Of a DNA stretch of 64,000 nt, positions 1-19,611 are shown one piece after another. The DNA lies in contig JADHVV010000003.1 of assembly GCA_016783825.1 (NCBI GenBank), forward strand, positions 45 to 64,044. Reading direction: 5' to 3'. The DNA comes from Candidatus Zhuqueibacterota bacterium. GTDB taxonomy: Bacteria; Zhuqueibacterota; Zhuqueibacteria; Thermofontimicrobiales; Thermofontimicrobiaceae. Position 1 is the stretch's first letter. The number at the start of each line of letters is the position of its first letter. The notes under the pieces were generated by a model that was not told the origin of the DNA, made no database searches, and was given only the letters and a program-made list of their open reading frames with translations. A program made the translations under genes and the position numbers.

Positions 1-1
1 A

Positions 2-352: not shown

Positions 353-386
353 TATTCTAAAATAATAAAACTTTTAAGGAAATATA

Positions 387-1553: not shown

Positions 1554-1608
1554 CTCTGTTGAAAAAGTACCATCCCGAAGGTTTTATGAAACAGAAATAT
1601 CAATATAA

Positions 1609-1686: not shown

Positions 1687-1755
1687 GAGATAAAATACAA
1701 TAACTTCCGGGCTCTCTAATTTAAAAATGAGATAAATAAGCGATGGAGGTATATC

Positions 1756-3042: not shown

Positions 3043-3096
3043 TTGCACTTTTTTGAGAAAAAATAATCACTGTTTCAATAATTTGGGAGAATTAAA

Positions 3097-3612: not shown

Positions 3613-3681
3613 CTGGATTTTTCCAATTATTAATAATCTCTTAATTGAATAGCTACAATTTAAAAAATAAGGAGTATGAAA

Positions 3682-4179: not shown

Positions 4180-4180
4180 T

Positions 4181-4320
4181 GCTGGATTATGGTTGCTGGA
4201 TATTGGTTTTTTATTGCTGGATTTTGGATTGTTGATTACTTAGATTTGATTTCCATGATTATCAAGCATCAAGTATCCAGTATCAAATATCGAGCATCCA
4301 GTATCAAATTTCCAGTAATT
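4181..4320. repeat. long imperfect hairpin built from tandem words (GCTGGAT-type arm vs ATCCAGT-type arm) after the stop of the preceding gene
   Basis: Left arm gctggattatggttgctggatattgg...ttgctggattttggatt. Right arm gtatccagtatcaaatatcgagcatccagtatcaaatttccag. The arms are complementary if G-U pairs are allowed. Confidence 0.5.
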
Positions 4321-4359
4321 GACTTTATTATGAAAAACAAAAAAACAGGAGATATTCAA

Positions 4360-4824
4360 ATGGCAGAGCAATCACTTACATTCAAAGATGCAATTAAAGT
4401 CGCAATTAAAGAAGAGATTAAGGCGTATAATTTGTATATGGAAACAAGTAAAAAAGTGTCTGGCTCTGGTACAAAAAAGATGCTCGAAGAACTGGCTGAA
4501 ATGGAGAAGGGGCATCGTAAGCTTTTGGAAGGAGTTATTGAAAGGCAAAAATCAGATATACTGGGCAAGAATATCCCCAGACAGAGTCCAGGGATAGCAG
4601 ATTTTTTAGTTGAAGTTGAATTAAAACAAAATGCTACTCCACAGGATGTGATGATCTTTGCCATGAAAGCAGAAGAAAAAGCATTTAATTTTTACACAGA
4701 ATTGAAAGGACAGTTTTCAGGAACTGAATTAGAAAACTTATTTAATAGTTTGGTAGAGGAAGAAAAAGGTCATAAAATTAAGCTGGAAAATGAATATGAT
4801 GAATATATTTTGCGGGAAAATTAA
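4360..4824 (+). CDS. rubrerythrin-family diiron protein (erythrin-like), paralog 3
   Basis: ATG 4360 is preceded by AGGAG. ExxH sets EMEKGH and EEEKGH. The track ORF start at 4189 only reads through the hairpin repeat. Confidence 0.7.
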   Translation: MAEQSLTFKDAIKVAIKEEIKAYNLYMETSKKVSGSGTKKMLEELAEMEKGHRKLLEGVIERQKSDILGKNIPRQSPGIADFLVEVELKQNATPQDVMIFAMKAEEKAFNFYTELKGQFSGTELENLFNSLVEEEKGHKIKLENEYDEYILREN

Positions 4825-4953
4825 TTTGCTACTAATCATTATTTGTTATAGTACCTGAATGGTATTCTTGAAAAAATGTCAGCAACAACAATGAATGAAT
4901 ATATAATTAAAAATAATAGTAAATATTTTAATTAAACAATTGGAGGTTTAATT

Positions 4954-5526
4954 ATGAATTTAAAAGGAACAAAAACAGAAAAAAATATTTTAACAGCATT
5001 TGCAGGAGAATCACAAGCAAGAAATCGTTATTCCTACTTTGCCAGCAAGGCAAAGAAAGAAGGTTTTGTGCAGATTGCAGCTATTTTTGAGGAAACTGCT
5101 AACCATGAAAAGGAACATGCCAAACGCTTGTTCAAGTTGCTTGTAGGAGGAGAAGTAGAAGTTCAAGCCGCTTTTCCTGCTGGTATAATTGGCTCTACTG
5201 CGGAAAATTTAAAAGCCTCTGCGGGCGGTGAAAATCATGAATGGACAGAGATGTATCCATCGTTTGCCAACGTGGCTCGGGAAGAAGGTTTTGAAAATAT
5301 TGCTGAAATATTTGAAGCCATCGCCGTTGCAGAAAAACAACATGAGAAACGTTATCTCGATTTGATAAAAAACATTGAAGATGGCACAGTATTTAAAAAG
5401 GATAAAAAAGTTGTATGGCGCTGTCGTAATTGCGGCTATTTACACGAAGGAACTGAAGCGCTTGATGTCTGTCCCGCTTGCGCTCATTCAAAGGCGCATT
5501 TTGAGCTGTTGGGTGAAAACTGGTAG
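4954..5526 (+). CDS. rbr: rubrerythrin
   Basis: 190 aa. Diiron bundle (ETANHEKEH, GGENHEW, AEKQHEKRY) plus C-terminal rubredoxin-like CRNC...CPAC. SD GGAGG. Confidence 0.92.
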   Translation: MNLKGTKTEKNILTAFAGESQARNRYSYFASKAKKEGFVQIAAIFEETANHEKEHAKRLFKLLVGGEVEVQAAFPAGIIGSTAENLKASAGGENHEWTEMYPSFANVAREEGFENIAEIFEAIAVAEKQHEKRYLDLIKNIEDGTVFKKDKKVVWRCRNCGYLHEGTEALDVCPACAHSKAHFELLGENW

Positions 5527-5577
5527 GTTTGCTTTTTGCGGATTGAAGATTTTGAATTTAACCAAGGAGGTAAAATT

Positions 5578-6288
5578 ATGAGTGATAAACCAATAGGCTG
5601 TGCCAGACCAACTGGAGGTCCAGTAGGGACTAAACCAGTCAAAGAAAAAACAAATGAACAAAACTTTGAATTGAAAAAGGAGAAAATTATGGTTGAAGTA
5701 AAAGTTGGGCAAAAAGCCCCAGATTTTGAGTCGTCAGCTTTTTACAAAGGCGAATTCAAGAATATTAAACTTTCTGATTATCTTGGCAAATGGGTTATCC
5801 TGTGTTTTTATCCTGGCGACTTTACATTTGTCTGACCAACCGAGTTAGCGACAGTTGCCGCTAATTACGATAAGCTGCAAAAGTTAGGCGTTGAAGTATT
5901 AGCAATGAGTGTTGACAGTATGTTTGTCCATAAGATATGGCAGGAAGAAGAATTATCTAAAATGGTCAAGCGTGGCGTTCCTTATCCCATGCTTTCTGAT
6001 GGCGCTGGCAAAGTAGGAAAAGTTTACGGTGTTTACGATGAAGCCGCAGGGGTTGATATTCGAGGAAGGTTTTTAATTGACCCCGATGGCGTGGTTCAGG
6101 CAATGGAAGTAATGACTCCGCCAGTGGGAAGAAATATCAAAGAGTTGATTCGTCAGATTGAAGCGTTTCAGCATGTTAGAAAATCTAAAGGTTCTGAAGC
6201 CTGTCCTGCAGGATGGGAACCTGGAAAACCAACTCTTAAACCAGGACCTGCTTTAGTGGGTAAGGTTTGGGAAGAATGGAAACCGTAA
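5578..6288 (+). CDS. typical 2-Cys peroxiredoxin (AhpC/Prx1 type) with TGA (5833-5835) at the peroxidatic Cys position; candidate selenocysteine protein
   Basis: Track ORFs 5536-5835 and 5905-6288 share one frame. The joined sequence reads ...[10 protein letters not shown][TGA]PTELATV..., matching the invariant FTFVCPTE. The resolving Cys EACPAGW is present. Two SD-preceded starts: 5578 (AAGGAGG) and 5689 (AGGAG). Confidence 0.8.
5843..5866 (+). promoter_or_regulatory. candidate bacterial SECIS stem-loop
   Basis: AGTTAGCG (5843-5850) pairs with CGCTAATT (5859-5866), including one G-U pair. The 8-nt loop ACAGTTGC has a GU about 21 nt 3' of the UGA. Confidence 0.5.
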
Positions 6289-6296
6289 AAAAAAAA

Positions 6297-6393
6297 TGGA
6301 GTAATGGATAGATGGATTAATCGAGTGATGGATGAGTGGAGTATTGGATTAATGGAGTGATAATAACTCATTTTTTCAATACTCCAGCAATCC
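6297..6393. repeat. word-built hairpin (TGGAGT/TGGATT words) after the prx stop
   Basis: The 64-nt C-free arm tggagtaatggatagatggattaatcgagtgatggatgagtggagtattggattaatggagtga contains seven GGA. It is partly complementary to actcattttttcaatactccagcaatcc. Confidence 0.5.
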
Positions 6394-6462
6394 GTTTAAG
6401 TTAATATTTATCAAAATAATGAAAAAGTAGTAAAATTTAACGATCGTTTTGAGAGGTAAATT

Positions 6463-6975
6463 ATGATATCAGAAAAAATGACTGAAAAATTAAATGACCA
6501 AATCAAGCATGAGTTGTATTCCGGTCATCTCTATTTATCAATGGCAGCCTATTGCGCTTCCATTGACCTTGATGGATTTTCAAATTTTTTTGTTGTTCAG
6601 GAGCAAGAAGAACGTTTTCATGCGATGAAATTTTTTCATTATATTGTTGAACAAGATAAAGATGTTAAAATTTTCGGACTTGATCAACCAGAGACTGAAT
6701 TTGATTCACTGGAAGCTGTAATTGATGCTGCATGGAAACATGAACAGAAAGTAACTAAAAGATTATATGACTTAATGAATTTAGCAAATGAGGAAAAAGA
6801 TTTTGCCACGCAAAGCCTTTTGAAATGGTTTATTGATGAACAGGTTGAAGAGGAAGCATCAATGTTAGGGCTGTTAAAGAAAGTAAAGTTAGTAGGCGAT
6901 AAAGGACAAGGCATTTTTATGTTGGATAAGGAGTTAGCCGAGAGAACATTTGCTCCTCCTGCGGCTGAAAAGTAA
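6463..6975 (+). CDS. ftn: non-heme ferritin
   Basis: 170 aa. Ferritin-like ELYSGHLYLSMAAY, QEQEERFHAMKF and KHEQKVT blocks. Confidence 0.9.
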   Translation: MISEKMTEKLNDQIKHELYSGHLYLSMAAYCASIDLDGFSNFFVVQEQEERFHAMKFFHYIVEQDKDVKIFGLDQPETEFDSLEAVIDAAWKHEQKVTKRLYDLMNLANEEKDFATQSLLKWFIDEQVEEEASMLGLLKKVKLVGDKGQGIFMLDKELAERTFAPPAAEK

Positions 6976-6998
6976 AGATAGCAGTTTTTGAAACTCAA

Positions 6999-7220
6999 CT
7001 AAAGTTCATTGAATTCATCAATTGTGAGATTAGCCTGCTTAATTAATTTTGATAAAAGTCCAATGCCAAGTTCCTTGTGTTGAAGAATAGATAAAGTGTA
7101 GGGATAGTCTGGTTTTGTCATCATAACATGAGAGCCTTTTTTACGAGATAATGTCCATCCGGCTCTTTGGAATTTTCTAACAACTGTGGTGCCAGAACAA
7201 ATCTTTATCCTGGGACTCAT
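6999..7220 (-). CDS. hicA: HicA-family mRNA interferase toxin
   Basis: 73 aa with the GSH...KP motif (RKKGSHVMMTKPD). Overlaps the upstream hicB by 4 nt. Confidence 0.85.
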   Translation of the reverse strand: MSPRIKICSGTTVVRKFQRAGWTLSRKKGSHVMMTKPDYPYTLSILQHKELGIGLLSKLIKQANLTIDEFNEL

Positions 7221-7426
7221 ACGAGTTCCTCGTACACTTCATGGACATTTTTATGTTGGGATTCCATTTTGTCATTCATAACATCAAACCAACCGGCAAT
7301 AGCTTCTTTGATGTTTTCTTTGGCTTCCGCTATTGTTTTACCTTGTGATAGACAACCTGGTAATGCGGGAGCTTCGGCAAAATAATAACCGGTTTCGTCT
7401 TTTTCAATGATGATTTTGAGTTTCAT
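7217..7426 (-). CDS. hicB: HicB-family antitoxin (UPF0150 fold)
   Basis: 69 aa. GYYFAEAPALPGCLSQGKTIAEAKENIKEAI is typical of HicB N-domains. Confidence 0.8.
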   Translation of the reverse strand: MKLKIIIEKDETGYYFAEAPALPGCLSQGKTIAEAKENIKEAIAGWFDVMNDKMESQHKNVHEVYEELV

Positions 7427-7518
7427 AATATTGCTCCGATATTAAATGATTAGCACAATAATATAATAAAGTTAAATCTCAAAAACAATAAAATATTTTT
7501 GAAATAAGGAGATTCATC

Positions 7519-7893
7519 ATGACAAAAATAAATCAAGTTTACAAGTGCGAAGTGTGTGGAAACATAGTTGAAGTTCTGCACACTGGAGCCGGCGAGTTAG
7601 TGTGCTGCAATCAACCAATGAATTTGTTGGAAGCAAATACCACAGATGCTGCAACAGAAAAGCATGTCCCTGTGATTGAAAAATCTGGTGATACAGTCAC
7701 AGTAAAAGTAGGGAGTGTTGACCATCCCATGTTGGATGAACATTATATTGAGTTCATTGAATTGATAGCTGATGGTCAGGTTTATCGAAAAGCTTTAAAA
7801 CCAGGCGACGCACCCGAAGCGACATTTAAAGTAAGTGCTGAAAACGTAGAAGCGCGTGCTTATTGTAACTTACATGGTTTGTGGAAAGCGTAG
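7519..7893 (+). CDS. dfx: desulfoferrodoxin (2Fe superoxide reductase)
   Basis: 124 aa. N-terminal desulforedoxin CEVCGN...CCNQPM and EKHVP SOR centre with C-terminal CNLHGLW. Confidence 0.9.
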
Positions 7894-8180
7894 TGCCCAA
7901 AATTTAAAGTTATGTTTATTACTAGGGCAAATTACTAAGGTAGTGTCAAAAGTTTTATGAAAAAATGAAAATTACCCCACGATACAATAAACGGCAAATG
8001 CAATGGGGGATGCGTATTCAGCCTTTCCCTTGCGCTGTCCAATAGCTAAATTGGGGGGAGAAAAATATATTGTGAGGGAGAATTTGTATGAAACCTTTAT
8101 TCATGGGGTGTTCATCAAAAAAAATCATAAAAAATGTCGAGAATTTTTGGCACTACCAAACTTTATAAGGAGAATAAACC

Positions 8181-9647
8181 ATGAAAGACGAAAAGAAGAA
8201 GTTGACCACCAATGCAGGCGCTCCCGTACCTGACAATCAGAATGTGATGACTGCTGGGCCTCGCGGCCCGCAGTTGCTGCAAGATGTCTGGTTCTTGGAA
8301 AAACTTGCCCACTTTGATCGTGAGGTCATCCCTGAGAGGCGCATGCATGCCAAGGGGTCTGGGGCGTATGGAACCTTCACCGTTACTCATGACATCACCC
8401 GCTACACCAAGGCAAAGATTTTCTCTGAGATTGGAAAGAAGACCGAACTTTTCACACGTTTCTCAACGGTGGCAGGTGAGCGCGGAGCGGCAGACGCGGA
8501 GCGTGATATCCGTGGATTTGCCATGAAATTCTACACTGAAGAGGGTAACTGGGACCTGGTGGGTAATAACACGCCCGTCTTCTTCCTGCGCGATCCACTC
8601 AAGTTCCCTGACCTTAACCACGCAGTGAAGCGAGATCCCCGAACAAACCTGCGTAGCGCCCGCAATAACTGGGACTTCTGGACATCACTGCCGGAGGCGT
8701 TACACCAAATCACAATAACCATGAGTGACCGCGGTATTCCTTACTCTTATCGCCACATGCACGGCTTTGGAAGTCATACCTTTAGCCTCATCAATGCCCA
8801 AAATGAACGGTACTGGGTGAAGTTCCATTTTGTCAGCCAACAGGGCATCAAGAACCTAACAGATGCCGAGGCCGAGGCCACCATAGGTAAGTGCCGGGAA
8901 AGCCACCAACGCGACCTCTATGAAAGCATTGAGAAGAAGGACTTTCCGAAGTGGAAGCTTTTCATCCAAGTAATGCCGGAGAAGGAAACCGCCAACTGCC
9001 CGTACAATCCATTTGACCTGACAAAGGTATGGCTCCGCAAGGACTACCCGCTAATTGAGGTCGGTATTTTGGAGCTGAATCGCAACCCCGAAAACTATTT
9101 TGCTGAGGTCGAACAGTCCGCCTTCAACCCGGCCAATATCGTCCCTGGTATTGGTTTTTCACCCGATAAAATGTTACAGGGCCGTCTGTTCTCGTACGGT
9201 GATGCTCAGCGTTATCGGCTTGGTGTGAACCACCACCTGATTCCGGTCAACGCATCGCGCTGCCCCTTCCACAGTTACCACCGCGATGGAGCCATGCGAG
9301 TCGACGGCAACCATAGCGGCACTCTCGGTTATGAGCCAAACAGCTACGGTGAGTGGGAACAACAGCCAGGCTTTTCAGAACCACCTATTAGCCTGGACGG
9401 AGCTGCCGATCATTGGAACCATCGTGATGACGACGATTACTACACCCAGCCCGGCTTGCTTTTCCGACTGATGAGCCCTGAACAGAAAGAAGCGCTCTTC
9501 GCCAATACCGCCCGTGCCATGGGCGATGCTCCCGAGGAGATTAAGATCCGCCATATCGGCAACTGCAAGAATGCCGATCCGGCTTATGGAAAGGGCGTGG
9601 CCGACGCTTTGGGCATTTTATTTGACGATGTACCCAGAGAGTCATGA
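8181..9647 (+). CDS. katA: monofunctional heme catalase
   Basis: 488 aa. FDRE.IPER..HAKG.GA.G.F, RFSTV.GE.G.AD..RD.RGFA.KFYT and VGNNTPVFF blocks. Visibly higher GC than its neighbours. Confidence 0.95.
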
Positions 9648-9670
9648 AGCAAGCAGCTAACAAACAAATT

Positions 9671-9697
9671 CAGCGGACGCAAAAAGCCGCGCCGCTG
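9671..9697 (+). terminator. GC-rich hairpin after the catalase gene
   Basis: cagcgg(a)cgc-aaaaagcc-gcgccgctg followed by attt. The U-tract is weak. Confidence 0.4.
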
Positions 9698-9818
9698 ATT
9701 TGGGTTAGAAGTACACCAAAGTATAAGCTAATAACTACTTCTATTTTAGCTCACTTTAGGTTATTACACTTTAGAGCACTTCAAACTTTAGGCATTTTCA
9801 TGTTTTTGTAATTTGCTT

Positions 9819-9840
9819 CTGGCTTGTCCAGATTAGGAAA
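9819..9840. repeat. solo copy of a 22-nt motif related to the MITE family A terminus
   Basis: ctggcttgtccagattaggaaa matches 52521-52542 at 21/22 positions and resembles the cttagtcagattagga end at 17465-17480. Confidence 0.45.
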
Positions 9841-9889
9841 TAAATATAAATCATATTAACTTATAACTTAAAATTAGGAGAATCAGTAA

Positions 9890-10438
9890 ATGAAAAAATT
9901 CGTATGTTCAGTATGTGGTTATGTACACGAAGGTGATGCCCCACCGGAAAAATGTCCCCAGTGCGGCGCACCAGCAGATAAATTTTATGAGCAAAAAGCT
10001 GGAGAATTGAATTGGGCAGATGAGCATAAGATAGGCGTTGCAAAAGGCGTTGATCCTGATGTTGTTGAAGGTCTCAAAATGAATTTTACAGGTGAATGCG
10101 CAGAAGTTGGCATGTATCTTGCGATGAGCCGTCAGGCAGATAGAGAAGGTTATCCTGAAGTAGCAGAAGCTTATAAAAGAATCGCCTGGGAAGAAGCAGA
10201 ACATGCTTCAAAATTTGCTGAATTATTAGGCGAAGTTGTGGTAGCAGATACCAAGACAAACCTGAAAATGCGAGTCGATGCTGAATTTGGTGCTTGTCAG
10301 GGTAAAAAGGATTTAGCGACAAAAGCAAAACAATTAAATTACGATGCTATTCATGACACAGTTCATGAAATGTGTAAAGATGAAGCGCGTCATGGCGCTG
10401 CTTTTGCCGGACTTTTGAAACGCTATTTCGGTGAATAG
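9890..10438 (+). CDS. reverse rubrerythrin (N-terminal rubredoxin-like domain + diiron bundle)
   Basis: 182 aa. N-terminal CSVCGY...CPQCG, then EC.E..MYLAM and EEAEHA, DEARHG ligand motifs. Confidence 0.85.
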
Positions 10439-10456
10439 ATTGGTAAAGGAATAATT

Positions 10457-11224
10457 ATGAACGAAAATCTTGGCATTGCGTTACTGCTAACCACCGGAGC
10501 CGGACTTGCTACGACGATTGGGAGTTTGATAGGTTTAGCAGTGCGCAAACCAGGACCCAAGTTTATGGGATTTACGCTCGGTTTTTCTGCCGGTGTGATG
10601 ATCCTGGTTTCTTTTGTTGAGTTGCTGCAAGGGAGCGTTGAGTCCATCGGATTTTTATCTGCTCACCTGGCATTTTTTCTTGGTATGATAAGTTTTTTCC
10701 TGATTGATACACTGATACCTCATGATTACATCGGTCAGTATGACCACAAGATATGCGAATCAGATCATGGATTGAAGCGTACCGGCATGCTCATCGCATT
10801 AGGCATTGGAGTTCATAATTTCCCTGAAGGTTTAGCAACTTTTGCCGGCGCGCTTGAGGATGTTCATCTTGGAATCGCAATTGCAGTAGCCATAGCTATC
10901 CACAATATTCCGGAAGGACTGGCAGTTTCTGCGCCTATTTACGCAGCAACCGGTAGTCGTAAAAAAGCATTTTTCTGGTCATTTCTCTCTGGTGTGAGTG
11001 AACCAATTGGCGCGGGTCTGGCAGCGCTTGTGCTTTTGCCTTTTTTAACAACAGTAGTTGTTGGTTGGCTGCTTGCAGCGGTTGCCGGGATAATGATTGC
11101 TATTTCACTCGATGAAATAATACCCGTAGCAAAAACTTTTGGAGGTGAGCATTCGCACGTACCTATACTCGGTATTATCACTGGTATGTTTGTAATGGCG
11201 GTCAGTCTGTGGTTACTGAATTGA
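10457..11224 (+). CDS. zupT: ZIP-family zinc transporter ZupT
   Basis: 255 aa, multi-TM, with HNFPEGLA and HNIPEGLAV motifs. Confidence 0.9.
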   Translation: MNENLGIALLLTTGAGLATTIGSLIGLAVRKPGPKFMGFTLGFSAGVMILVSFVELLQGSVESIGFLSAHLAFFLGMISFFLIDTLIPHDYIGQYDHKICESDHGLKRTGMLIALGIGVHNFPEGLATFAGALEDVHLGIAIAVAIAIHNIPEGLAVSAPIYAATGSRKKAFFWSFLSGVSEPIGAGLAALVLLPFLTTVVVGWLLAAVAGIMIAISLDEIIPVAKTFGGEHSHVPILGIITGMFVMAVSLWLLN

Positions 11225-11349
11225 TATAATATCAGATCTATACATAAAGAAAAAATATAGACAAAATTATGGATGACAAAATGATAGTTTATCAAGACAT
11301 TTAGTAACATTTCACCATTTGTGTTATTCATTATTTTGATATCAGAACA

Positions 11350-11458
11350 ATGATTAACGATTTACGATTTTAGAAGTATTGTTGATATTTTCAATCAAAT
11401 TTTATAATTCAACGTTCCTTCATAAATCAAAAATCGTTAATCTTTATTCGTAAATCAT
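11350..11458. repeat. word-built hairpin (GATTAACGATTTACGA words) downstream of zupT
   Basis: atgattaacgatttacgatttt (11350-11371) vs aaaaatcgttaatctttattcgtaaatcat (11429-11458). Confidence 0.5.
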
Positions 11459-11647
11459 CTTTTTAGAAAAAAATGTTAGGGAGGTGAACTATTACGACAT
11501 TTATTTTTTTGTCGTCCATTATTTTGTCTTTTGATGTGAATTGTAGTTACCAAATCATTTGAACAATTAACAATTCAGGAATGGGATGAATAAATTATCG
11601 AATTACACATCCTATCTTTTTAACTACATTTAAGAAAAAAGGAAAGT

Positions 11648-12997
11648 ATGATGAAAAATTCAATTTTGTCTGTTATTATTCTTTTCTGTCTATCCACTTT
11701 AATCTTCTCTCAAGATTTACCAGGGGGCGAAGAAGCACTTGGTACAAAAAAATACGAACAATATGAAAAACCTGAAGCTTGCAAAAGCTGTCACCCTGAT
11801 ATTTACCAGCAGTGGACGCAAGCAATGATGTCACAGGCTTATACGCACCATTGGGACGAAATTGAATATTTTGATCTGGCAGTTGAACATGGAAAGGTCG
11901 ATCCCAAGTTTGCCCCTGTTGCTGACGGTTGCAATGGATGCCATACTCCCATTGCATTTCTATCGGGTGATGTACCGCCTCCGAGACCTTCTGAAAACTC
12001 AAGGGCTAATGAAAGTGTGAGCTGCGATGTGTGCCACACAATAAAAAGCTTTAAGGGTGATGAACCATTTAATTTCAGTTACATCTCCCAACCAGGCAGG
12101 TTAAAATGGGGGAATAAACCCGGATTAACATCTCCCCATCACGACACAGAAGAAAGCGATTTTATGAAACAAGCTGAATTTTGCGGGAACTGCCACAATG
12201 AAAAAGATCCCTTTGGCATTTGGGTAAAGTCAACCCATTTGGAGTGGAAAGAAGGACCTTATGCAAAGCAGGGCGTTCCCTGTCATCAGTGCCACATGCC
12301 AAAAGCCTGGGGGAAGAACGCCACCATGGCTGAAAAAAGTATGGTCTCCCAACACCTGTTTCACGGGGGACATGATGCAGGTAAAGTTGCCGGTACCATC
12401 GAATTGCGAATGCACCCCGAAGAAAGAGAAGTGGAATATGACGGAACCATTGTTTTAAAAGTTCAACTTTTTAACGGAAAAACCGGGCATAAATTCCCCA
12501 CTGGTTCTGTTGAAGATCGAATTGTTTGGCTACATGTCACTGCGACAGATGCAAATGGAAAAGAGTACCATCTGCCGGTGGATAAAAAAGGATTTGATGG
12601 GGAAGAGTACACCATCGCAGCCGATGTGTTAGCTTACCAGGATATGGGAATCCCCAAGCGTGATCCAAATTTCAAAGGGGTGCAAAGGGATGGTGTGCCA
12701 TTTGGAGACCGAATTTTTCGAATGCCCTATTTTGATCCCCAGGGCAGAATGACCATTATGCAATGGAATACGGCTTCACTGGGAGTTGATTATCGTTTCG
12801 GACCGCGGGAAACAAAAATTGAAACTTTTAGCTGGGTATTACCGGGTGATATCCCGGAAGGGAAAGTCAACTTTAAGGCAAAGCTATTTTATCAATTACT
12901 CGTTAAACCGGTTGGTGATTATCTTGGTGTCCCGGAAGAAGAAACAACACCAATCTTGGTGAATTCAGCTTCGACCTGGGTTGAGATTTACGAATAA
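11648..12997 (+). CDS. secreted pentaheme c-type cytochrome
   Basis: 449 aa with a signal peptide. Five CxxCH (CKSCH, CNGCH, CDVCH, CGNCH, CHQCH). The C-terminal half is non-heme (GHKFPTGSVEDR...). Confidence 0.75.
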   Translation: MMKNSILSVIILFCLSTLIFSQDLPGGEEALGTKKYEQYEKPEACKSCHPDIYQQWTQAMMSQAYTHHWDEIEYFDLAVEHGKVDPKFAPVADGCNGCHTPIAFLSGDVPPPRPSENSRANESVSCDVCHTIKSFKGDEPFNFSYISQPGRLKWGNKPGLTSPHHDTEESDFMKQAEFCGNCHNEKDPFGIWVKSTHLEWKEGPYAKQGVPCHQCHMPKAWGKNATMAEKSMVSQHLFHGGHDAGKVAGTIELRMHPEEREVEYDGTIVLKVQLFNGKTGHKFPTGSVEDRIVWLHVTATDANGKEYHLPVDKKGFDGEEYTIAADVLAYQDMGIPKRDPNFKGVQRDGVPFGDRIFRMPYFDPQGRMTIMQWNTASLGVDYRFGPRETKIETFSWVLPGDIPEGKVNFKAKLFYQLLVKPVGDYLGVPEEETTPILVNSASTWVEIYE

Positions 12998-13013
12998 AAA
13001 TAGGAGAGTAAAG

Positions 13014-14201
13014 ATGAATCTTAAAAAAATAATTTTGTTAATAATAATTTTTACGCCTTTTCTAACTATATTCACAACATCAGACTCTAATGCGATCCCT
13101 GCATTTGCGCGACGATATAAAATCTCCTGTACAACCTGCCACGCTCCCATACCTAAATTGAAACCTTATGGGGATGAATTTGCCGGCAATGGTTTCATCA
13201 TGAAAGAAAATGAAAAAGCGCGCGATTATGTCAGCGCTGGTGATGATCTTCTCTGGTTGAATAAAGATTTTCCGGTTGGTGTTCGTTTTGATGCCTACGC
13301 GGTTTATGATGAGGATAAACCGGTTGATAAAGATTTGCAGATTCCGTGGGGGCTGAAAATATTATCTGGCGGGACTTTGTACAAAAATATTGGCTATTAT
13401 TTTTATTTCTATTTTTCCGAACGGGGTGAAGTGGCAGGCATTGAAGACGCTTATATTCACTTCGATAATATTTTCGGATCAAACCTCGATATTATGGTGG
13501 GACAATTTCAGACATCAGATCCCTTAATGAAAAGAGAGCTTCGTTTGACGTTTGAAGATTACATGATCTATAAACAAAGATTCGGTTTATCAAGAACCAA
13601 CCTGGCTTATGACCGAGGATTAGTGTTTGTTTATGGAATTGAAAAAACCGGCACTGATTTAATCGCACTGGTTGTGAACGGAAATGGAAAAGACGAAGCC
13701 GGTGCTGATAAAAAATTTGATGATGATCCATTCAAGAATTTTGGCTTTCGAATCAATCAGGGGATTGGTAAAATAGCAAGCATTGGTGCATATTTTTATA
13801 AGGGCAGGGAAAAGTACGTTTATTCCGATGGAATGCTTGGAACATTTGAAAATGAACTTACTTATATCGGACCCGATTTAAACGTTGGAATTGGTCCCAT
13901 CGAGTTTACTTTTCAATACCTTTTGAGAAAAGATACGAATCCATTTTTTCTTTCACAATCAGAAGAGTATAAATCAAAAGGAACAATAGCCGAAATTATT
14001 TATTCTCCAAAACTTGATAAATCAAGATTCTTTTTAACCGGTTTGTATAACAAAATAGATTCTGATCTCTATAAATACGAAACAGCAACGTTGAGCGGAA
14101 CTTATCTTGTAGCTCGAAATCTGCGTTTGATTGCGGAATTTACCCGGGATTTGGAACATGATTTAAACAGGTTTACTTTGGGATTGGTGAGTGGATTTTA
14201 A
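13014..14201 (+). CDS. putative outer-membrane beta-barrel protein with an N-terminal CxxCH motif
   Basis: ATG 13014 follows TAGGAGAG. Signal peptide ending SNA. The mature N-terminus is IPAFARRYKISCTTCH. The rest is rich in alternating aromatic/Gly beta-strand-like segments and ends in ...LGLVSGF (terminal Phe). Starts 17 nt after the cytochrome stop. Confidence 0.5.
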   Translation: MNLKKIILLIIIFTPFLTIFTTSDSNAIPAFARRYKISCTTCHAPIPKLKPYGDEFAGNGFIMKENEKARDYVSAGDDLLWLNKDFPVGVRFDAYAVYDEDKPVDKDLQIPWGLKILSGGTLYKNIGYYFYFYFSERGEVAGIEDAYIHFDNIFGSNLDIMVGQFQTSDPLMKRELRLTFEDYMIYKQRFGLSRTNLAYDRGLVFVYGIEKTGTDLIALVVNGNGKDEAGADKKFDDDPFKNFGFRINQGIGKIASIGAYFYKGREKYVYSDGMLGTFENELTYIGPDLNVGIGPIEFTFQYLLRKDTNPFFLSQSEEYKSKGTIAEIIYSPKLDKSRFFLTGLYNKIDSDLYKYETATLSGTYLVARNLRLIAEFTRDLEHDLNRFTLGLVSGF

Positions 14202-14269
14202 TTCTTGATATTGGATACTAGCTGCTGGCTTCTGGATTTAATGTATAGGAAGTTATACAGTGTTTTAGA

Positions 14270-14352
14270 ATTGTAATTGGAATCTTGGAGTGATGGAAAT
14301 TGGATTATTGTTATTGTTGCATTGATCCGGTGCTCCATTTTTCCAGTTCCAT
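14270..14352. repeat. word-built hairpin (TTGGA/ATGGA words) after the barrel gene
   Basis: attgtaattggaatcttggagtgatggaaattggatt vs gatccggtgctccatttttccagttccat. Confidence 0.45.
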
Positions 14353-14389
14353 AATAATAAATTATTTTAATTAAATAAAGAGGTGAGCT

Positions 14390-15193
14390 ATGTACAGAAA
14401 ATTATTTACTCTCGTTTCAATTTTTATTTTAGCAGCAACGACTTATTTGCTTTCCAGCTCTGGTGGCAAAACCGGCAGAACACAGTCCGGCTGTACCTGT
14501 CATGGAAGTTTGAGTGCTGGAAATGCAACGATAAGTCTGACATCAAATCCTGATATATTTTCCGGTAGTGGTTATTCTCCTGGAAATTCTTACACGTTAT
14601 CTTTGACTGTTACTGGCGGTCCTTCTGGTACTAAAGGTGGATTTAATTTAAAACCATCAGCAGGTACGTTATCAAATGCGGGATTGAACGCGAAAATTGT
14701 TGGTACAGAAGCAACTCAATCAAATGCAGACTCAAGATCGTGGACAATTGATTGGACTGCCCCGGATGCTTCTGTTGAATCGGTTACTTTTTATTATGCC
14801 TGGAATGCGGTTAATGGCAACTTTAGTACATCCGGGGATGATCCGACCCCAACAGAAACGAAAACTGCAAATCTTCAAACGACATCGGTTAGAAATCAGG
14901 ATTCACCAGTAATAGGCGATTTCCATGTTTATCAAAATTATCCGAATCCGTTTAATTCGGAAACAAAGATTCAATATCAAATTAGCAAGGCGGGTGAAGT
15001 AAAACTGAAAATATTTGATATAAGCGGCAAAAAAATCTTTCAAGTTATTCAGAATAATAGTCATGCCGGGAATTTTTATTTTACCTGGAATGGTAAAACA
15101 AATAGAGGAATGGCTGCTGTTTCGGGTACTTATATTTACCAGGTGGGATTTGATCGCAACATTATATCTAACAAATTAATATTGCTGAAGTAA
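14390..15193 (+). CDS. secreted protein with conserved GKTG..(4)..GCxCHG N-terminal motif and T9SS C-terminal sorting domain
   Basis: 267 aa with a signal peptide. Motif SSGGKTGRTQSGCTCHG. Roughly 45 % identical by eye to the 16034 paralog over about 135 aa. The C-terminus has QNYPNPFNSET.... Confidence 0.6.
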   Translation: MYRKLFTLVSIFILAATTYLLSSSGGKTGRTQSGCTCHGSLSAGNATISLTSNPDIFSGSGYSPGNSYTLSLTVTGGPSGTKGGFNLKPSAGTLSNAGLNAKIVGTEATQSNADSRSWTIDWTAPDASVESVTFYYAWNAVNGNFSTSGDDPTPTETKTANLQTTSVRNQDSPVIGDFHVYQNYPNPFNSETKIQYQISKAGEVKLKIFDISGKKIFQVIQNNSHAGNFYFTWNGKTNRGMAAVSGTYIYQVGFDRNIISNKLILLK

Positions 15194-15219
15194 AAGTTAT
15201 TTAAAAAAAGGAAACTAAA

Positions 15220-15426
15220 ATGAAAAAAAATATTGGTATCTTTGATAAAGTTTTCAGGATTATTATCGGTCTGGCAATACTTATTTTAGGAATTATTTAT
15301 AATAGTTGGCTTGGTTTGATTGGACTGGTGCCGATTGTAACAGCGTTATTAGGCAGGTGTCCGGCGTATTCGCCATTCGGGATTTCCACATGTAAAGCCA
15401 AGGAAACAAAGAACAATGGTAAATGA
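15220..15426 (+). CDS. DUF2892 (YgaP-like) small membrane protein
   Basis: 68 aa. D...R...G......G........G..P..TA..G.CP.Y pattern. Confidence 0.75.
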   Translation: MKKNIGIFDKVFRIIIGLAILILGIIYNSWLGLIGLVPIVTALLGRCPAYSPFGISTCKAKETKNNGK

Positions 15427-15985
15427 AATGTCAACACAAATTTTAAATATTCTAAAAGACAGGAAAGCAACGCGCGCTTTTTCATCTGCAAAATTACCTG
15501 AAGAAATGATAAACCAATTGATGGACGCAGCACAGCTTTCTGCCTCCTGTTTTAATAATCAACCGTGGCGTTTTTTATTTTTAACTGAAGAAAGTGCTCT
15601 TGAAAAGGGAAGAATGGCGCTTTCAAAAGGGAACGGTTGGGCAAAAGAGGCGCTGCTATTGGTAGTAGGATTCACAAAACCGGATTTGGATTGTCAACTT
15701 CCTGACGGACGGAATTATTTTCAATTTGACCTGGGAATGGCAGTGCAAAATATATTACTTCAGGCTACCGAGTTGAATTTAGTGGCTCGCCCAATGGCTG
15801 GCTTCTCTCAGGACGTAATCAGGCAGGAGTTTGACATCCCAAAGGAATTTGAAATTATGGTTATGGTAGCAATTGGTTTTGAAGGAAATATTAATGAGAT
15901 GGATGAGAAATTGCAAGCAAAATCAAAAGAGCCTCGAAAAAGGAATCCATTGCCAGCTAATTTTTTTATTAATAATTATGAATGA
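15416..15985 (+). CDS. nitroreductase-family flavoprotein
   Basis: 189 aa. R.ATRAF, APS..N.QPWRF-like NNQPWRFLF and a C-terminal conserved R...P. Confidence 0.85.
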   Translation: MVNEMSTQILNILKDRKATRAFSSAKLPEEMINQLMDAAQLSASCFNNQPWRFLFLTEESALEKGRMALSKGNGWAKEALLLVVGFTKPDLDCQLPDGRNYFQFDLGMAVQNILLQATELNLVARPMAGFSQDVIRQEFDIPKEFEIMVMVAIGFEGNINEMDEKLQAKSKEPRKRNPLPANFFINNYE

Positions 15986-16033
15986 ATTAGTCATAATAAC
16001 AAAAACAAACCATCAAGCTTAAAAGGAACTCAT

Positions 16034-16531
16034 ATGAAAAAAGTAATCACTACCAGTTTTATTTTAATTTTTTCTTTTTTATTTGTTAATATTTTAATAT
16101 CTTCTTCAAAAGGGAAGACAGGATACACGAAAAAAGGTTGTATTTGTCATGGTAAACTTTCTGCTGGAAATTCCACAATTCAGCTTAAAAGCACACCAAA
16201 TATATTTGATAAAAAGGGATTCAATCCGGATAGTACTTACCAGATAATTATTTCATTAAAAGGTGAAACAAAAACAAAGAATGGTGGTTTTAATTTGAAA
16301 GTGTCACATGGAAAATTAACAAAGGACAGTCGGTTTACAAAAATCATGGGACAGGAAGCAACACATGCCAATAATCGAAAAACAGAATGGGTGTTGAATT
16401 GGACTGCACCGAATACGTCAGTAGATACAGTCACTTTTTTTTACACCGGATGTTTGGCGAATGGAAATTATAAAAAGAGTGGTGATGATCCAACAGTGCC
16501 GCAAACTCTAATTGCCCATAAAGCAAAATAA
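16034..16531 (+). CDS. paralog of 14390 (GCxCHG secreted protein) without a T9SS domain
   Basis: 165 aa with a signal peptide. Motif SSKGKTGYTKKGCICHG. Shared blocks GGFNLK, W..WTAP..SV..VTF.Y and SGDDPT. Confidence 0.55.
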   Translation: MKKVITTSFILIFSFLFVNILISSSKGKTGYTKKGCICHGKLSAGNSTIQLKSTPNIFDKKGFNPDSTYQIIISLKGETKTKNGGFNLKVSHGKLTKDSRFTKIMGQEATHANNRKTEWVLNWTAPNTSVDTVTFFYTGCLANGNYKKSGDDPTVPQTLIAHKAK

Positions 16532-16552
16532 TATTTTGAGAAAGGAAAAATC

Positions 16553-16993
16553 ATGAAAGTAAAAGAAATTTTAAAAACTAAAGGCCCTGAAGTCATTACA
16601 ATTGGTGAAGAAAAAACTGTTAAGGAAGCGCTTGCTTCTTTAGTGAAAAATAACATCGGTTCATTAATAGTGATTAATGAAGACGGTAAAATAACAGGGA
16701 TAATTACTGAACGTGATATTTTGAAAGAATGCAATAAAAAAGAAGGGAAGCTTGGAGAACTCATCGTAAAAGATGTAATGACAAAAGATTTAATTATCGG
16801 TGAAGCTGATGATGAAGTTGAGAGTGTAGAAGTAATAATGACAGAAAACAGGGTTCGCCATTTACCCATTTTATCTCAAAAACGCTTGGTTGGCATCATT
16901 TCTATTGGCGATGTTGTGAAAGGGCAGATTCAGGAAAGCCAAGTTGAAAATCGGTATTTGAAAGACTATATCGAAGGAAAGTATCTACCGTAA
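16553..16993 (+). CDS. CBS-domain pair protein
   Basis: 146 aa. Two CBS repeats (G.L.V.......GIITERDI and RHLP.......GIISIGDV). Confidence 0.85.
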   Translation: MKVKEILKTKGPEVITIGEEKTVKEALASLVKNNIGSLIVINEDGKITGIITERDILKECNKKEGKLGELIVKDVMTKDLIIGEADDEVESVEVIMTENRVRHLPILSQKRLVGIISIGDVVKGQIQESQVENRYLKDYIEGKYLP

Positions 16994-16994
16994 T

Positions 16995-17126
16995 GGTGAT
17001 GGAGTGGGAGAGAGGGTGAGAGGGAGACAAGGAGAGATGGTGATGGGGAGAAAACAACATCAAGTATTTAGCATACTTTTTTAGTTATACTTTCTCCCCA
17101 GCTTCCATTATCACGCTCTCCCACTC
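16995..17126. repeat. about 130-nt word-built hairpin (GGAGTGGGAGAG / GGGGAGAAA words) after the CBS gene
   Basis: ggtgatggagtgggagagagggtgag...gatggtgatggggagaaa pairs with tttctccccagcttccattatcacgctctcccactc. Confidence 0.55.
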
Positions 17127-17166
17127 GTTGATGAAAATATAAGAATTTTTAAAATGAGCATGATTA

Positions 17167-17421
17167 ATGGCTATCAAAAAATGCCCCGGAATGGATCCGG
17201 CATATTTTAAACCGGAAGATATTCAAATGCATCGTTGCCTGGAATGCGGGCAAGAACTTGAGTTCTGGAAGGATGATGTGAAACTTAAATGTGCTCATTG
17301 CGGACAAAATAACTTCAATCCGAATTTGGGGAATACGTGTTTGGTTTGGTGTAAAGAAGCTGCGAAGTGTGTTGGAAATGATGATATTAATGAATGGATT
17401 GAAAAACATAATCTAAATTAA
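17167..17421 (+). CDS. small Cys-rich zinc-ribbon-like protein, function unknown
   Basis: 84 aa. CLECG...CAHCG plus further Cys residues. No family recognised. Confidence 0.45.
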   Translation: MAIKKCPGMDPAYFKPEDIQMHRCLECGQELEFWKDDVKLKCAHCGQNNFNPNLGNTCLVWCKEAAKCVGNDDINEWIEKHNLN

Positions 17422-17461
17422 TTTGTGATGAGAAATATTTTATTGCTTGTGGTAATAAATA

Positions 17462-17621
17462 CTACTTAGTCAGATTAGGACAAAAAACAATATTACTAAG
17501 AAAAACCAATGAATGGTACTGTCATTCCGGCAATTTTTAAGCCGGAATCTCCTGTTCTTCTGAGGAGTTTCCCGCTAAAAACGTGCGGGAATGACAGGAT
17601 GACCGAAATCTGACAAAGTAG
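17462..17621. mobile_element. MITE-like nested palindrome, family A copy 1
   Basis: Termini are ctacttagtcagat / atctgacaaagtag. The core hairpin is gtcattccggc...gccggaatc...cgggaatgac (17521-17594). Confidence 0.5.
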
Positions 17622-17673
17622 CCCTAATCCCACCAGTTGTTTTGATAACTAACTTGGACATATCAGAAAAAAT

Positions 17674-17720
17674 GAAGTCATTCTGAATCACTCATCAACA
17701 GGATTCAGAATGACTTTTTT
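17674..17720. terminator. bidirectional intrinsic terminator between convergent genes
   Basis: 13-bp perfect stem gtcattctgaatc / gattcagaatgac, flanked by an A-run on the left and a T-run on the right. Confidence 0.65.
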
Positions 17721-17746
17721 ATTAAGATAATTAATGTGTTATTTCC

Positions 17747-19498
17747 TTATTTAAGCAGGAGGAGCTTACGGGAAGCGGTAAATTTTTCTGTGTGTAATTT
17801 GTAAATATACACACCGCTTGCCAAATGTTCGGCATCCCATTCGTATTGATAGCTACCTGCTTCCTGTTGCTCCGAAACCACAGTCGCTATCTTTTGTCCG
17901 GCCATGTTGAAAATTACAAATTCAACATTACTTCGCTGCGGCAACTGGTAACTGATGACGGTGCTTGGGTTGAACGGATTGGGGTAGTTCTGTTCAAGAG
18001 CAAATCTTTGTGGCGTAATGTTTTTAGGTAAGTCAACAGAGGTCACCTTAAATTCTGACTCTAAAGCGCCCATGTCCACAAATTCATCAGCAGATTGATC
18101 TGGTCGGGCGTTACCACCAAAATCAATCGGAGGAGCATGATACATTTTTTCATCTATTAAAATTGAATCTATGCCTGCCCCAATACACGGACTGCTGTCT
18201 GATAAATGAAACAGCGTATCTGCAAACAATGGGTCCGCGCTGATATTATTCTCACCAACCCATACACTATCCTGAATATTTGAATGGGCCACCATAACAG
18301 AACCCGAAATTTGCGGACCGGTTGAGGCTTGATTATTCCATAATATCGAATTAATCACAACAGGATTGACACCACTCGACGTTATTCCTCCGCCTCCATT
18401 AGATGCGCTATTATTTATAATGGTATTATTAATAATTTGTGAGATACTGGATCTGCTGTCAATGCCGCCACCATAAAGTGCTGAATTGCCTGTAATAATA
18501 TTATTGGTAATACTTAATTTACCTTTAAAGATATAGATCCCGCTTCCACGCCCAGAATTACTGCTATTGTAAGAAATAATATTTCTGTCAATAAATGATG
18601 TTCCTGCCATTTGATAAACATAGATGCCGGCACCGTAATTTGTGCCGTTGCCACTTAATATATTTCGAGATATCTCATTACCTACCACATTTGAACTCAT
18701 ACCGCTCTCAATTGATAAACCGCCTGCAAATGCGTTAACATCCCCAATGGCCTGATTATGAGTAATGCGATTGTTTTTAATCACTGCAGTACGAGGAAAA
18801 GAAGTTTCCGTCCAACAGCCCACTGCGCCAAATGCATGATGGGTTGCATTACTCGTGTTAAAGGAGATGTCATTGTTTTTTATTGTTGCATTACATGTAA
18901 GATCTACACCACATCCCCAGGCGTCCGCGCCAGTGGTTGTATTATATACTATTTGGTTTCCATCAATTATAACATGGGCCGTGCTGCCATTCGGATAGCC
19001 ACCAATCCCGCCTCCTGTACTCACATTATGATCAGGGACATGATTGTTCATAATTTTATTTTGCGCGATACGTGCTCCAGAATTATAACAAAGGATTCCT
19101 CCACCTACTCTTACAGCATCACCACCAGTTTCTGTTATTGTCCCGCTGCCATTGGTTATGGTGAAACCATGTAAAACAGAAGTAGTATCTTCACCGGAAA
19201 CAAAAAAGACTACCGAACCACTGTCCGCATGACTTGGTGAACTACCATCGATGATGGTATTGGAAATGTGGCTGGTGTCGTCATCCACAAAATAGTGGCT
19301 GGCAACGGTGATGGCTTTTCCTTTGTAATTAATGTTTTCGTAATAGGTGCCATCTGCTACCAAAACAGTGTCTCCTTCCACTGCTGCGTTTATGCCAGCC
19401 TGAATAGTTGCCTGATCTCCCGGAACGTTAATAGTGTCTGCAAATGAGATCCTTGTTAAGAGAGTTACAAAACAAATAACAAAAATAAAACGTTTCAT
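17747..19498 (-). CDS. right-handed parallel beta-helix repeat protein, T9SS cargo
   Basis: 583 aa with a signal peptide. Repeated N.I..N/G.G.GI turns. C-terminal EQNYPNPFNPSTVISY sorting domain. Confidence 0.8.
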   Translation of the reverse strand: MKRFIFVICFVTLLTRISFADTINVPGDQATIQAGINAAVEGDTVLVADGTYYENINYKGKAITVASHYFVDDDTSHISNTIIDGSSPSHADSGSVVFFVSGEDTTSVLHGFTITNGSGTITETGGDAVRVGGGILCYNSGARIAQNKIMNNHVPDHNVSTGGGIGGYPNGSTAHVIIDGNQIVYNTTTGADAWGCGVDLTCNATIKNNDISFNTSNATHHAFGAVGCWTETSFPRTAVIKNNRITHNQAIGDVNAFAGGLSIESGMSSNVVGNEISRNILSGNGTNYGAGIYVYQMAGTSFIDRNIISYNSSNSGRGSGIYIFKGKLSITNNIITGNSALYGGGIDSRSSISQIINNTIINNSASNGGGGITSSGVNPVVINSILWNNQASTGPQISGSVMVAHSNIQDSVWVGENNISADPLFADTLFHLSDSSPCIGAGIDSILIDEKMYHAPPIDFGGNARPDQSADEFVDMGALESEFKVTSVDLPKNITPQRFALEQNYPNPFNPSTVISYQLPQRSNVEFVIFNMAGQKIATVVSEQQEAGSYQYEWDAEHLASGVYIYKLHTEKFTASRKLLLLK

Positions 19499-19611
19499 GG
19501 TGCACCTCAGTATTTAATAAAAAGTGATAGAATTATACCTTGAATATACAAAATTAGATGAGGGATTATCTACCAGGTATGTTTCAAAAAATGCAAGAAA
19601 TGTAACATATT

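Follow-up and report, generated by a model that had tools for sequence, protein, structure and literature searches.

The locus considered here raises the question of what a secreted five-haem cytochrome and an outer-membrane barrel with a haem motif of its own accomplish together. The two proteins are encoded side by side at positions 11648–14201 of a 64,000-nucleotide stretch of DNA from a Candidatus Zhuqueibacterota bacterium (contig JADHVV010000003.1, assembly GCA_016783825.1), the whole of which is called the window below. An initial annotation, made from the sequence alone, had proposed that the pair forms a porin-cytochrome-like module distinct from the MtrAB and PioAB types and acts as an electron conduit or a metal-redox device. 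The present analysis supports this proposal: the predicted barrel has 16 strands, its neighbour has five haem motifs, and the barrel protein matches no family of Pfam or NCBIfam. The sequences and structural models place the barrel protein in the Cyc2 family and its neighbour among the pentahaem cytochromes of the c552/PtdA type. High confidence attaches to what the two proteins are, to how they fold and to the strict co-occurrence of their genes as a cassette in a distinct Cyc2 clade. A role for the module in defence of the cell envelope is favoured tentatively.

The barrel protein

Both open reading frames (ORFs) described in the initial annotation were found on the + strand. The first, 11648–12997, encodes a secreted protein of 449 aa with five CxxCH motifs. 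The second, 13014–14201, encodes a protein of 395 aa, counted from the ATG at 13014, with a signal peptide and a CxxCH motif. The spacer between these same-strand genes is 16 nt (12998–13013, + strand) and not the 17 nt first given.

The second protein reads MNLKKIILLIIIFTPFLTIFTTSDSNA followed by IPAFARRYKISCTTCH and ends in ...LGLVSGF, in agreement with the ...VSGF terminus noted earlier. Its N-terminus, MNLKK...SDSNA, was read by eye as a signal peptide, MNLKKIILLIIIFTPFLTIFTTSDSNA, whose core is hydrophobic and whose end is A-x-A-like (residues 1–27, 13014–13094, + strand). Cleavage is predicted after ...SDSNA, giving a mature protein that begins IPAFARRYKISCTTCHAPIPKL. A27 is nearly invariant and every orthologue reads A/(I,V)PAFAR at the cleavage site.

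Orthologues were examined in 76 loci from species-representative genomes, with flanks fetched up to 8 kb per side. The loci carry the labels KSB1, Zhuqueibacterota, Calditrichota, Latescibacterota, Neomarinimicrobiota, Fidelibacterota and Eisenbacteria, all FCB-group phyla. The haem-binding segment of the barrel protein (13092–13160, + strand) runs A-I-P-A-F-A-R-R-Y, KIS, C-T-T-C-H, API, P-K-L and includes the single CxxCH of the protein, C39-T-T-C42-H43. Exactly one such motif is present in each of 68 intact orthologues, and the whole haem segment is kept in all of the intact homologues from the fetched loci (68/68). Residues P29, A30, R33, C39, C42, H43, P47 and L49 are invariant in 44 barrel orthologues, and a looser form of the haem-segment motif is still present in representatives at 29–36% identity.

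Cyc2 proteins are recognised by a signal peptide, a single N-terminal CxxCH, the motif AxPxFAR[Q/K][T/Y] just upstream of it and PxL 4 residues downstream (Keffer 2021, PMC8406198), together with a 16-strand porin resembling OprO/OprP and a length of at least 365 aa (PMC8406198). All of these features are found in the product of 13014–14201, including the length, which is 395 aa. The [Q/K] position is occupied by R, where the orthologues have R, K or Q, and the PxL appears as H43-A-P-I-P47-K-L49. A haem motif at the N-terminus of a barrel, at first thought unusual, is instead a hallmark of this known family (PMC8406198).

An AlphaFold2 (AF2) model of the barrel protein, built on 44 orthologues, gave a pLDDT of 74.9 and a pTM of 0.73. 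DSSP assigned 16 strands over residues 88–394 of this model, and the barrel as a whole (residues 88–395, 13275–14198, + strand) closes with the C-terminal aromatic ...VSGF. The haem segment was modelled with low confidence, as expected because the cofactor is absent from the model. The best Foldseek matches in the PDB were the 16-strand porins OmpU, OmpT, VhChiP and OprO (4rjx), with E about 1e-10 to 4e-11. The barrel anticipated in the initial annotation is thus borne out, and the soluble fold that had been named as the result to look for against it was not what AF2 modelled; the model is an outer-membrane barrel. A profile search of PDB sequences gave no meaningful solved relative. More than 3000 homologues were found, and all those that are named are labelled 'hypothetical'. 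With this many homologues and the haem motif kept in every intact one of the fetched loci, the feature goes well past chance.

On the evidence of motif, length and predicted fold, 13014–14201 is assigned to the Cyc2 family of fused monohaem cytochrome-porins, and the haem-plus-barrel design is not new. The haem presumably lies within or next to the barrel's periplasmic mouth. The barrel region includes a conserved internal segment that forms no strand, GQFQTSDPLMKRELRLTFEDY (about residues 163–183), in which G163, Q164, F165, Q166, D169, P170, K173, R174, E175, R177, D182 and Y183 are invariant in the orthologue alignment. The mean column identity of the barrel protein over 44 orthologues is 58%, across phyla, and Cyc2 porin domains are normally poorly conserved (PMC8406198).

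The pentahaem partner

The 449-aa protein encoded by 11648–12997 has an N-terminal signal sequence and the motifs CKSCH, CNGCH, CDVCH, CGNCH and CHQCH. All five of these, together with five further His residues (H67, H165, H236, H242 and H281), are invariant in 39 orthologues, over which the mean column identity is 74%. The AF2 model (pLDDT 82.3, pTM 0.81) shows a helical five-haem domain (residues ~1–250) and a C-terminal beta-sandwich (~251–449). Only one structure matched the whole protein in Foldseek, namely 5ZE8, the penta-haem c552 of Thermochromatium tepidum (E 3.9e-18, TM 0.56/0.64), and the matches that followed covered beta-sandwich domains only. A profile of the protein against PDB sequences also gave 5ze8 as its best match (E 1.8e-13).

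Several other families were tried and set aside. Membership of the ExtKL family (NCBIfam NF040886) was rejected as the score was 58 bits against a cut-off of 250, over residues 124–307 only. The match to NrfA (PF02335) scored 19.5 bits against a cut-off of 24.1 and covered a 26-residue stretch; an identity as NrfA was rejected on this sub-threshold score and because there is no CxxCK, all five motifs being CxxCH, though short NrfA/c552-like motifs surround the fifth haem. The MtrC/MtrF (25.6 bits, cut-off 30) and OmcA/MtrC (26.6 bits, cut-off 209) scores were both below threshold. There is no in-frame stop in the ORF and hence no selenocysteine. Anchoring as a lipoprotein was discarded given that the Cys in the signal peptide is not conserved among orthologues, and for this reason the protein is taken to be soluble and periplasmic.

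The model and the sequence comparisons indicate that 11648–12997 encodes a c552/PtdA-type pentahaem cytochrome, probably the dedicated periplasmic partner of the Cyc2 protein. This fold class includes catalytic enzymes (MccSep/ExtKL) and not merely electron wires, since MccSep, a periplasmic five-haem selenoenzyme which has been compared structurally with 5ZE8, reduces polysulfide (bioRxiv 10.1101/2025.11.18.688581). The strong conservation of both the barrel and the pentahaem protein suggests a tight complex or an enzyme.

A conserved two-gene cassette

The pentahaem gene lies directly upstream of the barrel gene and on the same strand in 73 of the 76 loci; of the three exceptions, two are truncated where a contig stops. 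Across 60 related loci the spacer measures 4–240 nt, with a median of ~40 nt, and order and strand are constant. A check on homologues that had been set beforehand therefore found the CxxCH kept and a pentahaem cytochrome almost always adjacent. A scan of 167 genomes of the phylum gave a strong barrel orthologue in 96 and a pentahaem orthologue in 97. These are nearly identical sets of genomes, and the mismatches examined fall at contig ends. About 58% of the genomes in this Zhuqueibacterota scan carry the barrel orthologue. Both genes are single-copy in the genome studied here.

More distant relatives were also inspected (loci L068 and L086–L091; the contig of L085 is too short to judge). No pentahaem neighbour was present beside the Cyc2-like gene of L068, which is 46% identical, or beside five more distant Cyc2-like genes (26–38%). 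The partnership is thus specific to this clade.

A strong hairpin with a U-run lies 3' of the barrel gene (14278–14351, + strand), with a terminator-like site and T-run at 14319–14333, and the fold of 14202–14389 had a z of -4.3 against shuffles. It is likely to be the end of a two-gene transcript and is consistent with an operon. These observations are best explained if 11648–12997 and 13014–14201 make up an operon of two genes that encodes an outer-membrane redox module.

The phylum scan also showed another kind of Cyc2-like gene (genomes G047–G067, G002, G003 and G007). Its ORFs are ~420–470 aa long and match the profile over the N-terminal ~130 residues only. It occurs mostly in genomes with a strong haem-copper oxidase and without a pentahaem orthologue.

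Genomic context

The pair sits inside a 17-kb island. Upstream of it (387–11224, + strand) Pfam and NCBIfam matches identify a co-directional run of oxygen-stress and iron genes: NADH:rubredoxin oxidoreductase (NROR), an octahaem HAO-like cytochrome, three rubrerythrin-like proteins, rubrerythrin, the peroxiredoxin PrxU, ferritin, desulfoferrodoxin, catalase, a rubrerythrin with an N-terminal rubredoxin-like domain and a ZIP transporter. The initial annotation had correctly placed a ZIP-family transporter upstream of the pair and two secreted GCxCHG proteins downstream, but had overlooked the oxygen-stress island, which is the strongest contextual clue. The 4.5-Mb assembly has one copy each of NROR, rubrerythrin, the peroxiredoxin, ferritin, desulfoferrodoxin, catalase and the second rubrerythrin, and every one of these is in the island.

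In other lineages the pair occupies a different place, yet stress genes turn up beside it again. Its 116 immediate neighbours there include superoxide dismutase (Fe/Mn) five times, flavodiiron protein five times, desulfoferrodoxin four times and AhpC and cytochrome c peroxidase twice each, and the stress enzyme that adjoins the pair differs by lineage. As a control, the 114 third and fourth neighbours were counted and gave ferritin four times and rubrerythrin twice; superoxide dismutase, flavodiiron protein, desulfoferrodoxin, AhpC and cytochrome c peroxidase were absent from the 25 families listed for these control neighbours.

Three observations were made on the stress genes themselves. The peroxiredoxin gene (5689–6288, + strand) has an in-frame TGA at 5833–5835, exactly at the peroxidatic position. 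Its C-terminal part matches NCBIfam PrxU with 250 bits against a cut-off of 270, over model positions 105–230 of 233, and it very likely encodes a selenocysteine peroxiredoxin truncated by standard ORF calling. Directly after NROR, 1756–3042 (+ strand) encodes a cytochrome, secreted or anchored in the membrane, that has eight CxxCH motifs and similarity to the HAO family (PF13447), possibly a detoxifying reductase for nitrosative or oxidative stress. Directly upstream of the pair at L051:1974–2924 and in similar loci, a HAD-phosphatase and a desulfoferrodoxin share one open frame, which could reflect a genuine fusion or the merging of two genes in ORF calling.

Respiratory genes

No COX1-family gene was detected in this genome, which is 83% complete, and one cytochrome bd was found. 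Among the 96 genomes that bear the pair, COX1 gave no match in 43, only a weak match in 23 and a strong one in 30. The corresponding figures for the 18 genomes with only other Cyc2-like genes were 2, 2 and 14. KSB1/Zhuqueibacterota have been described as largely anaerobic to facultative, with cydAB widespread and cox patchy, and the distribution of COX1 across the phylum fits this description (PMC11683472).

The genome also contains membrane-anchored NapC/NirT-like proteins with 4 and 7 haems, which are candidate quinol dehydrogenases, and a large multihaem cluster. Given these, periplasmic cytochromes could be reduced from the quinol pool. The cluster, which is on another contig (C99:532–25471), encodes very large multihaem cytochromes with 21, 14, 12, 11, 11, 9, 9, 5 and 4 CxxCH motifs; it is separate from the pair and resembles clusters for extracellular electron transfer.

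Function of the module

Fe(II) oxidation has been shown experimentally for the Cyc2 of A. ferrooxidans, Cyc2PV-1 and Cyc2TAG1 (PMC8406198). The haem potentials of three Cyc2 homologues at neutral pH range from -130 to +208 mV. In the present genome the module is read, tentatively, as the cell-envelope arm of a defence against oxygen and iron stress and not as a respiratory iron oxidase. This is favoured because the pair lies in a stress island, because stress genes recur as its neighbours and because no haem-copper oxidase was detected here. Whenever oxidants arrive in a habitat that is anoxic and bears Fe(II), the Cyc2 haem would oxidise dissolved Fe2+ as it enters the pore, with the Fe(III) remaining outside the cell. 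The electron would go to the pentahaem protein and there serve to reduce periplasmic H2O2 or O2, so that iron and oxidant would disappear together and Fenton chemistry would be avoided. Both the oxidant and the direction of electron flow are proposals made within this interpretation.

Several observations weigh against a defensive role. The association with stress genes is real but partial: they occur within the fetched flanks in only ~22 of the 76 loci, and the neighbours in most loci are unrelated (HAD/PfkB sugar genes, sugar-nucleotide genes, cytochrome c biogenesis and others). No shared operator was found upstream of the pair, as a search for enriched 8-mers in 59 upstream regions returned A/T-rich words only. 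The five invariant His residues outside the motifs of the pentahaem protein suggest bis-His, probably low-potential haems, and no open catalytic site is obvious. Haems of this kind would be more in keeping with an electron wire and outward flow than with a peroxidase. The NapC/NirT-like quinol dehydrogenase candidates and the multihaem cluster of this genome are just as compatible with electrons supplied by the cell. A strong haem-copper oxidase is present in ~30 pair-bearing genomes. The incompleteness of metagenome-assembled genomes weakens every absence call.

The main rival, which is judged unlikely, reverses the flow. Electrons would be vented from menaquinol through periplasmic or membrane cytochromes to the pentahaem protein, then to the Cyc2 haem and on to dissolved extracellular acceptors such as O2, H2O2, Fe(III) chelates or humics, the role being surface oxidant scavenging or anaerobic respiration. 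From the five invariant distal His residues one would expect bis-His haems, typically of low potential, and 5ZE8 is called a low-potential cytochrome in the title cited for it. The potential of a Cyc2 haem can reach -130 mV, and the NapC/NirT-like proteins and the multihaem cluster are able to feed periplasmic cytochromes. The stress genes fit surface oxidant scavenging equally well. However, every characterised Cyc2 is an Fe(II) oxidase with inward electron flow, a single haem in a narrow porin would reach dissolved acceptors only, and no link to a quinol dehydrogenase is seen beside the pair.

Somewhat less probable again is a periplasmic reductase equipped with its own substrate porin, conceived by analogy with MccSep/ExtKL (polysulfide) or with enzymes of the NrfA and HAO types (nitrite, NO or hydroxylamine). 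The pentahaem protein would then be the enzyme, and the haem-porin would mainly admit the substrate and perhaps relay electrons. The partial match to ExtKL (58 bits) and the NrfA/c552 motifs near the fifth haem are in keeping with this, as are the very high, enzyme-like conservation of the pentahaem protein and the octahaem HAO-like cytochrome in the same island. Furthermore, MccSep is a five-haem periplasmic enzyme whose substrate has no explained route of entry, and PtdA, a pentahaem protein with a beta-sandwich, also adjoins a porin (PtdB). These points must be set against scores that are far under the family cut-offs and the lack of a selenocysteine codon. Genes for sulfur or nitrogen metabolism do not recur beside the pair, and a plain substrate porin needs no strictly conserved haem site.

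Classical energy-conserving Fe(II) oxidation, in which the pentahaem protein would replace Cyc1/rusticyanin as the carrier to a terminal oxidase or nitrate reductase, is regarded as improbable. It is what membership of the Cyc2 family and the 'Cyc2 iron oxidase' call of FeGenie-type pipelines would imply; the Cyc2 homologues of Calditrichota, KSB1 and Eisenbacteria have been listed as candidates for iron oxidisers (PMC9769843), and about 30 of the 96 pair-bearing genomes do have a strong COX1. Against this, no COX1 was detected in the present genome and a cytochrome bd, which oxidises quinol, cannot accept electrons from cytochrome c. There is no COX1 match in 43 of the 96 genomes, no oxidase, bc1/ACIII or carbon-fixation genes lie beside the pair, the carriers are described as heterotrophs (PMC9769843, PMC11683472) and the neighbours are stress enzymes.

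That the two proteins do not interact at all, being co-transcribed neighbours with separate roles, is very hard to square with a gene order, strand and short spacer that hold in 73 of 76 loci of several phyla, with presence and absence that nearly coincide over 167 genomes and with a barrel far more conserved than the usual Cyc2 porin domain.

Implications for Cyc2 as a marker

No marker gene for microbial iron oxidation is used more widely than Cyc2, which FeGenie, for instance, employs. The protein in the window belongs to a very large and tightly conserved Cyc2 subclade (>3000 sequences) that travels with a pentahaem partner. The subclade is common in genomes without a haem-copper oxidase and occurs repeatedly beside genes for the detoxification of superoxide, peroxide and oxygen. 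In published work, the Cyc2 homologues from Calditrichota, KSB1 and Eisenbacteria appear as putative iron oxidases (PMC9769843). The literature covered, itself incomplete, contains no paper that links Cyc2 with ptdAB, reports on this clade's pentahaem partner or remarks on its oxygen-stress setting.

If a role in envelope defence is correct for the present genome, the interpretation of matches to the Cyc2 marker changes and an outer-membrane component is added to the oxidative-stress toolkit of anaerobes. A broader claim is possible but doubtful: the whole pentahaem-linked Cyc2 clade might be an unrecognised antioxidant device in the envelope of FCB-group bacteria that are anaerobic and micro-oxic. 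It would act as an Fe(II):peroxide (or Fe(II):oxygen) oxidoreductase in two parts, a haem-porin in the outer membrane and a pentahaem enzyme in the periplasm. Were this true, a controlled reaction would replace uncontrolled Fenton chemistry, with Fe(III) kept outside the cell, and a large share of the 'Cyc2 iron-oxidiser' calls from sediment and oxygen-minimum-zone metagenomes would represent stress defence and not iron lithotrophy. Even if the defensive role is wrong, the pair would be a compact two-protein redox system across the outer membrane, apparently tractable for expression and structural work.

Other features of the window

The initial annotation had described a 424-nt non-coding leader in front of the pair. 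An intergenic stretch is indeed present upstream, but it is 423 nt long (11225–11647) and consists mostly of a dispersed repeat of ~200 nt. The repeat (11299–11502, no strand assigned) is palindromic and MITE-like, with nested inverted repeats. Searching its own genome at E<=0.001 returned 61 matches, counted over both strands, with 74–86% identity in the best full-length copies; copies lie, for example, at C151:16999–17199 and C84:5610–5820. Rfam gave no match within 1–20000 at E<=0.1, the upstream region included. In two close relatives, L001 and L003, the gap between the ZIP gene and the cytochrome gene is ~70 nt and ~170 nt, respectively. A dedicated regulatory leader was rejected given that most of the region is a genome-wide palindromic repeat, that Rfam has no match to it and that it is shorter in relatives. 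The stretch 11299–11502 is an inserted MITE-like or REP-like repeat and not a conserved regulatory leader.

Downstream of the pair (14390–16993, + strand), Pfam and NCBIfam matches identify two 'choice-of-anchor V' GCxCHG proteins, a small membrane protein, a nitroreductase and a CBS-domain protein. This context is common to close relatives only, the small membrane protein and the nitroreductase being present in 7 loci and the other two families in 3–4 loci each. The choice-of-anchor V proteins (14390–15193 and 16034–16531, + strand) are paralogues with an invariant GKTG-x4-GCxCHG, and one has a type IX secretion system (T9SS) tail. They bracket the small membrane protein and the nitroreductase, an arrangement seen only in the close relatives L003, L006, L010 and L011.

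Long G/A/T-rich hairpins made of GGAGTG/ATGGA-like words are found 3' of island genes at 6289–6462, 14202–14389 and 16994–17166, and these may be a shared type of terminator or repeat. On the - strand, the intergenic stretch 6976–7518 seems, when read by eye, to encode two small proteins that resemble a toxin-antitoxin pair of the HicA/HicB type.

Comparison with known systems

In MtrAB, MtoAB and PioAB a decahaem cytochrome runs through a barrel of 26 strands, and the barrel itself lacks haem. The present pair shares with these systems a periplasmic multihaem cytochrome encoded beside an outer-membrane barrel, and with it the logic of electron transfer across the outer membrane. It differs in having five haems, 16 strands and a haem predicted to be covalently bound to the barrel protein. 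Membership of these families was rejected on the number of haems and strands and because the barrel has no MtrB/PioB match.

MccSep/ExtKL of Geobacter sulfurreducens (NF040886) is likewise periplasmic, has five haems and falls in the same broad fold class, with a partial profile match. It differs from the present pentahaem protein in that the match stays at 58 bits against the 250-bit cut-off, in its selenocysteine, which is lacking here, and in being a polysulfide reductase. ExtI, the barrel of the MccSep/ExtKL cluster, is not known to bind haem. The c552 of T. tepidum (5ZE8) has the same five-haem domain and Ig-like beta-sandwich, and shares H-x-x-P-T-G and G-x-H motifs, but is only 19% identical to the pentahaem protein.

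The ptdAB genes of marine Proteobacteria, Nitrospirales and Planctomycetes place a gene for a pentahaem protein with a beta-sandwich beside a porin gene; their function is unknown, and the ptd cluster is transcribed in oxygen-deficient water (bioRxiv 10.1101/2023.11.21.568154). Compared by description only, PtdAB and the present pair both combine a pentahaem homologue of T. tepidum c552, bearing a beta-sandwich at the C-terminus, and an adjoining porin gene. The ptdC-G genes (flavoprotein, tetrahaem, Fe-S, ferric-reductase-like and decahaem) are absent downstream of the pair, and genes of these types are not recurrent in the 76 loci. A haem motif in PtdB is not mentioned in the description of the cluster (bioRxiv 10.1101/2023.11.21.568154).

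The closest likeness is to Cyc2 itself, that is, to the Cyc2 of A. ferrooxidans, Cyc2PV-1 of Mariprofundus ferrooxydans, Cyc2TAG1 of Ghiorsea bivora and Cyt572 of Leptospirillum. The signal peptide, the motifs, the 16-strand OprO/OprP-like porin and the length of ~400 aa are all the same. In the present protein, however, R takes the place of Q/K in the motif and the barrel is strongly conserved. The carriers here are described as heterotrophs, and many of them have no haem-copper oxidase detected. Finally, the gene is tied to a pentahaem partner that other Cyc2 lineages lack, and its context is one of oxygen-stress genes and not of rus, cyc1 or oxidase genes.

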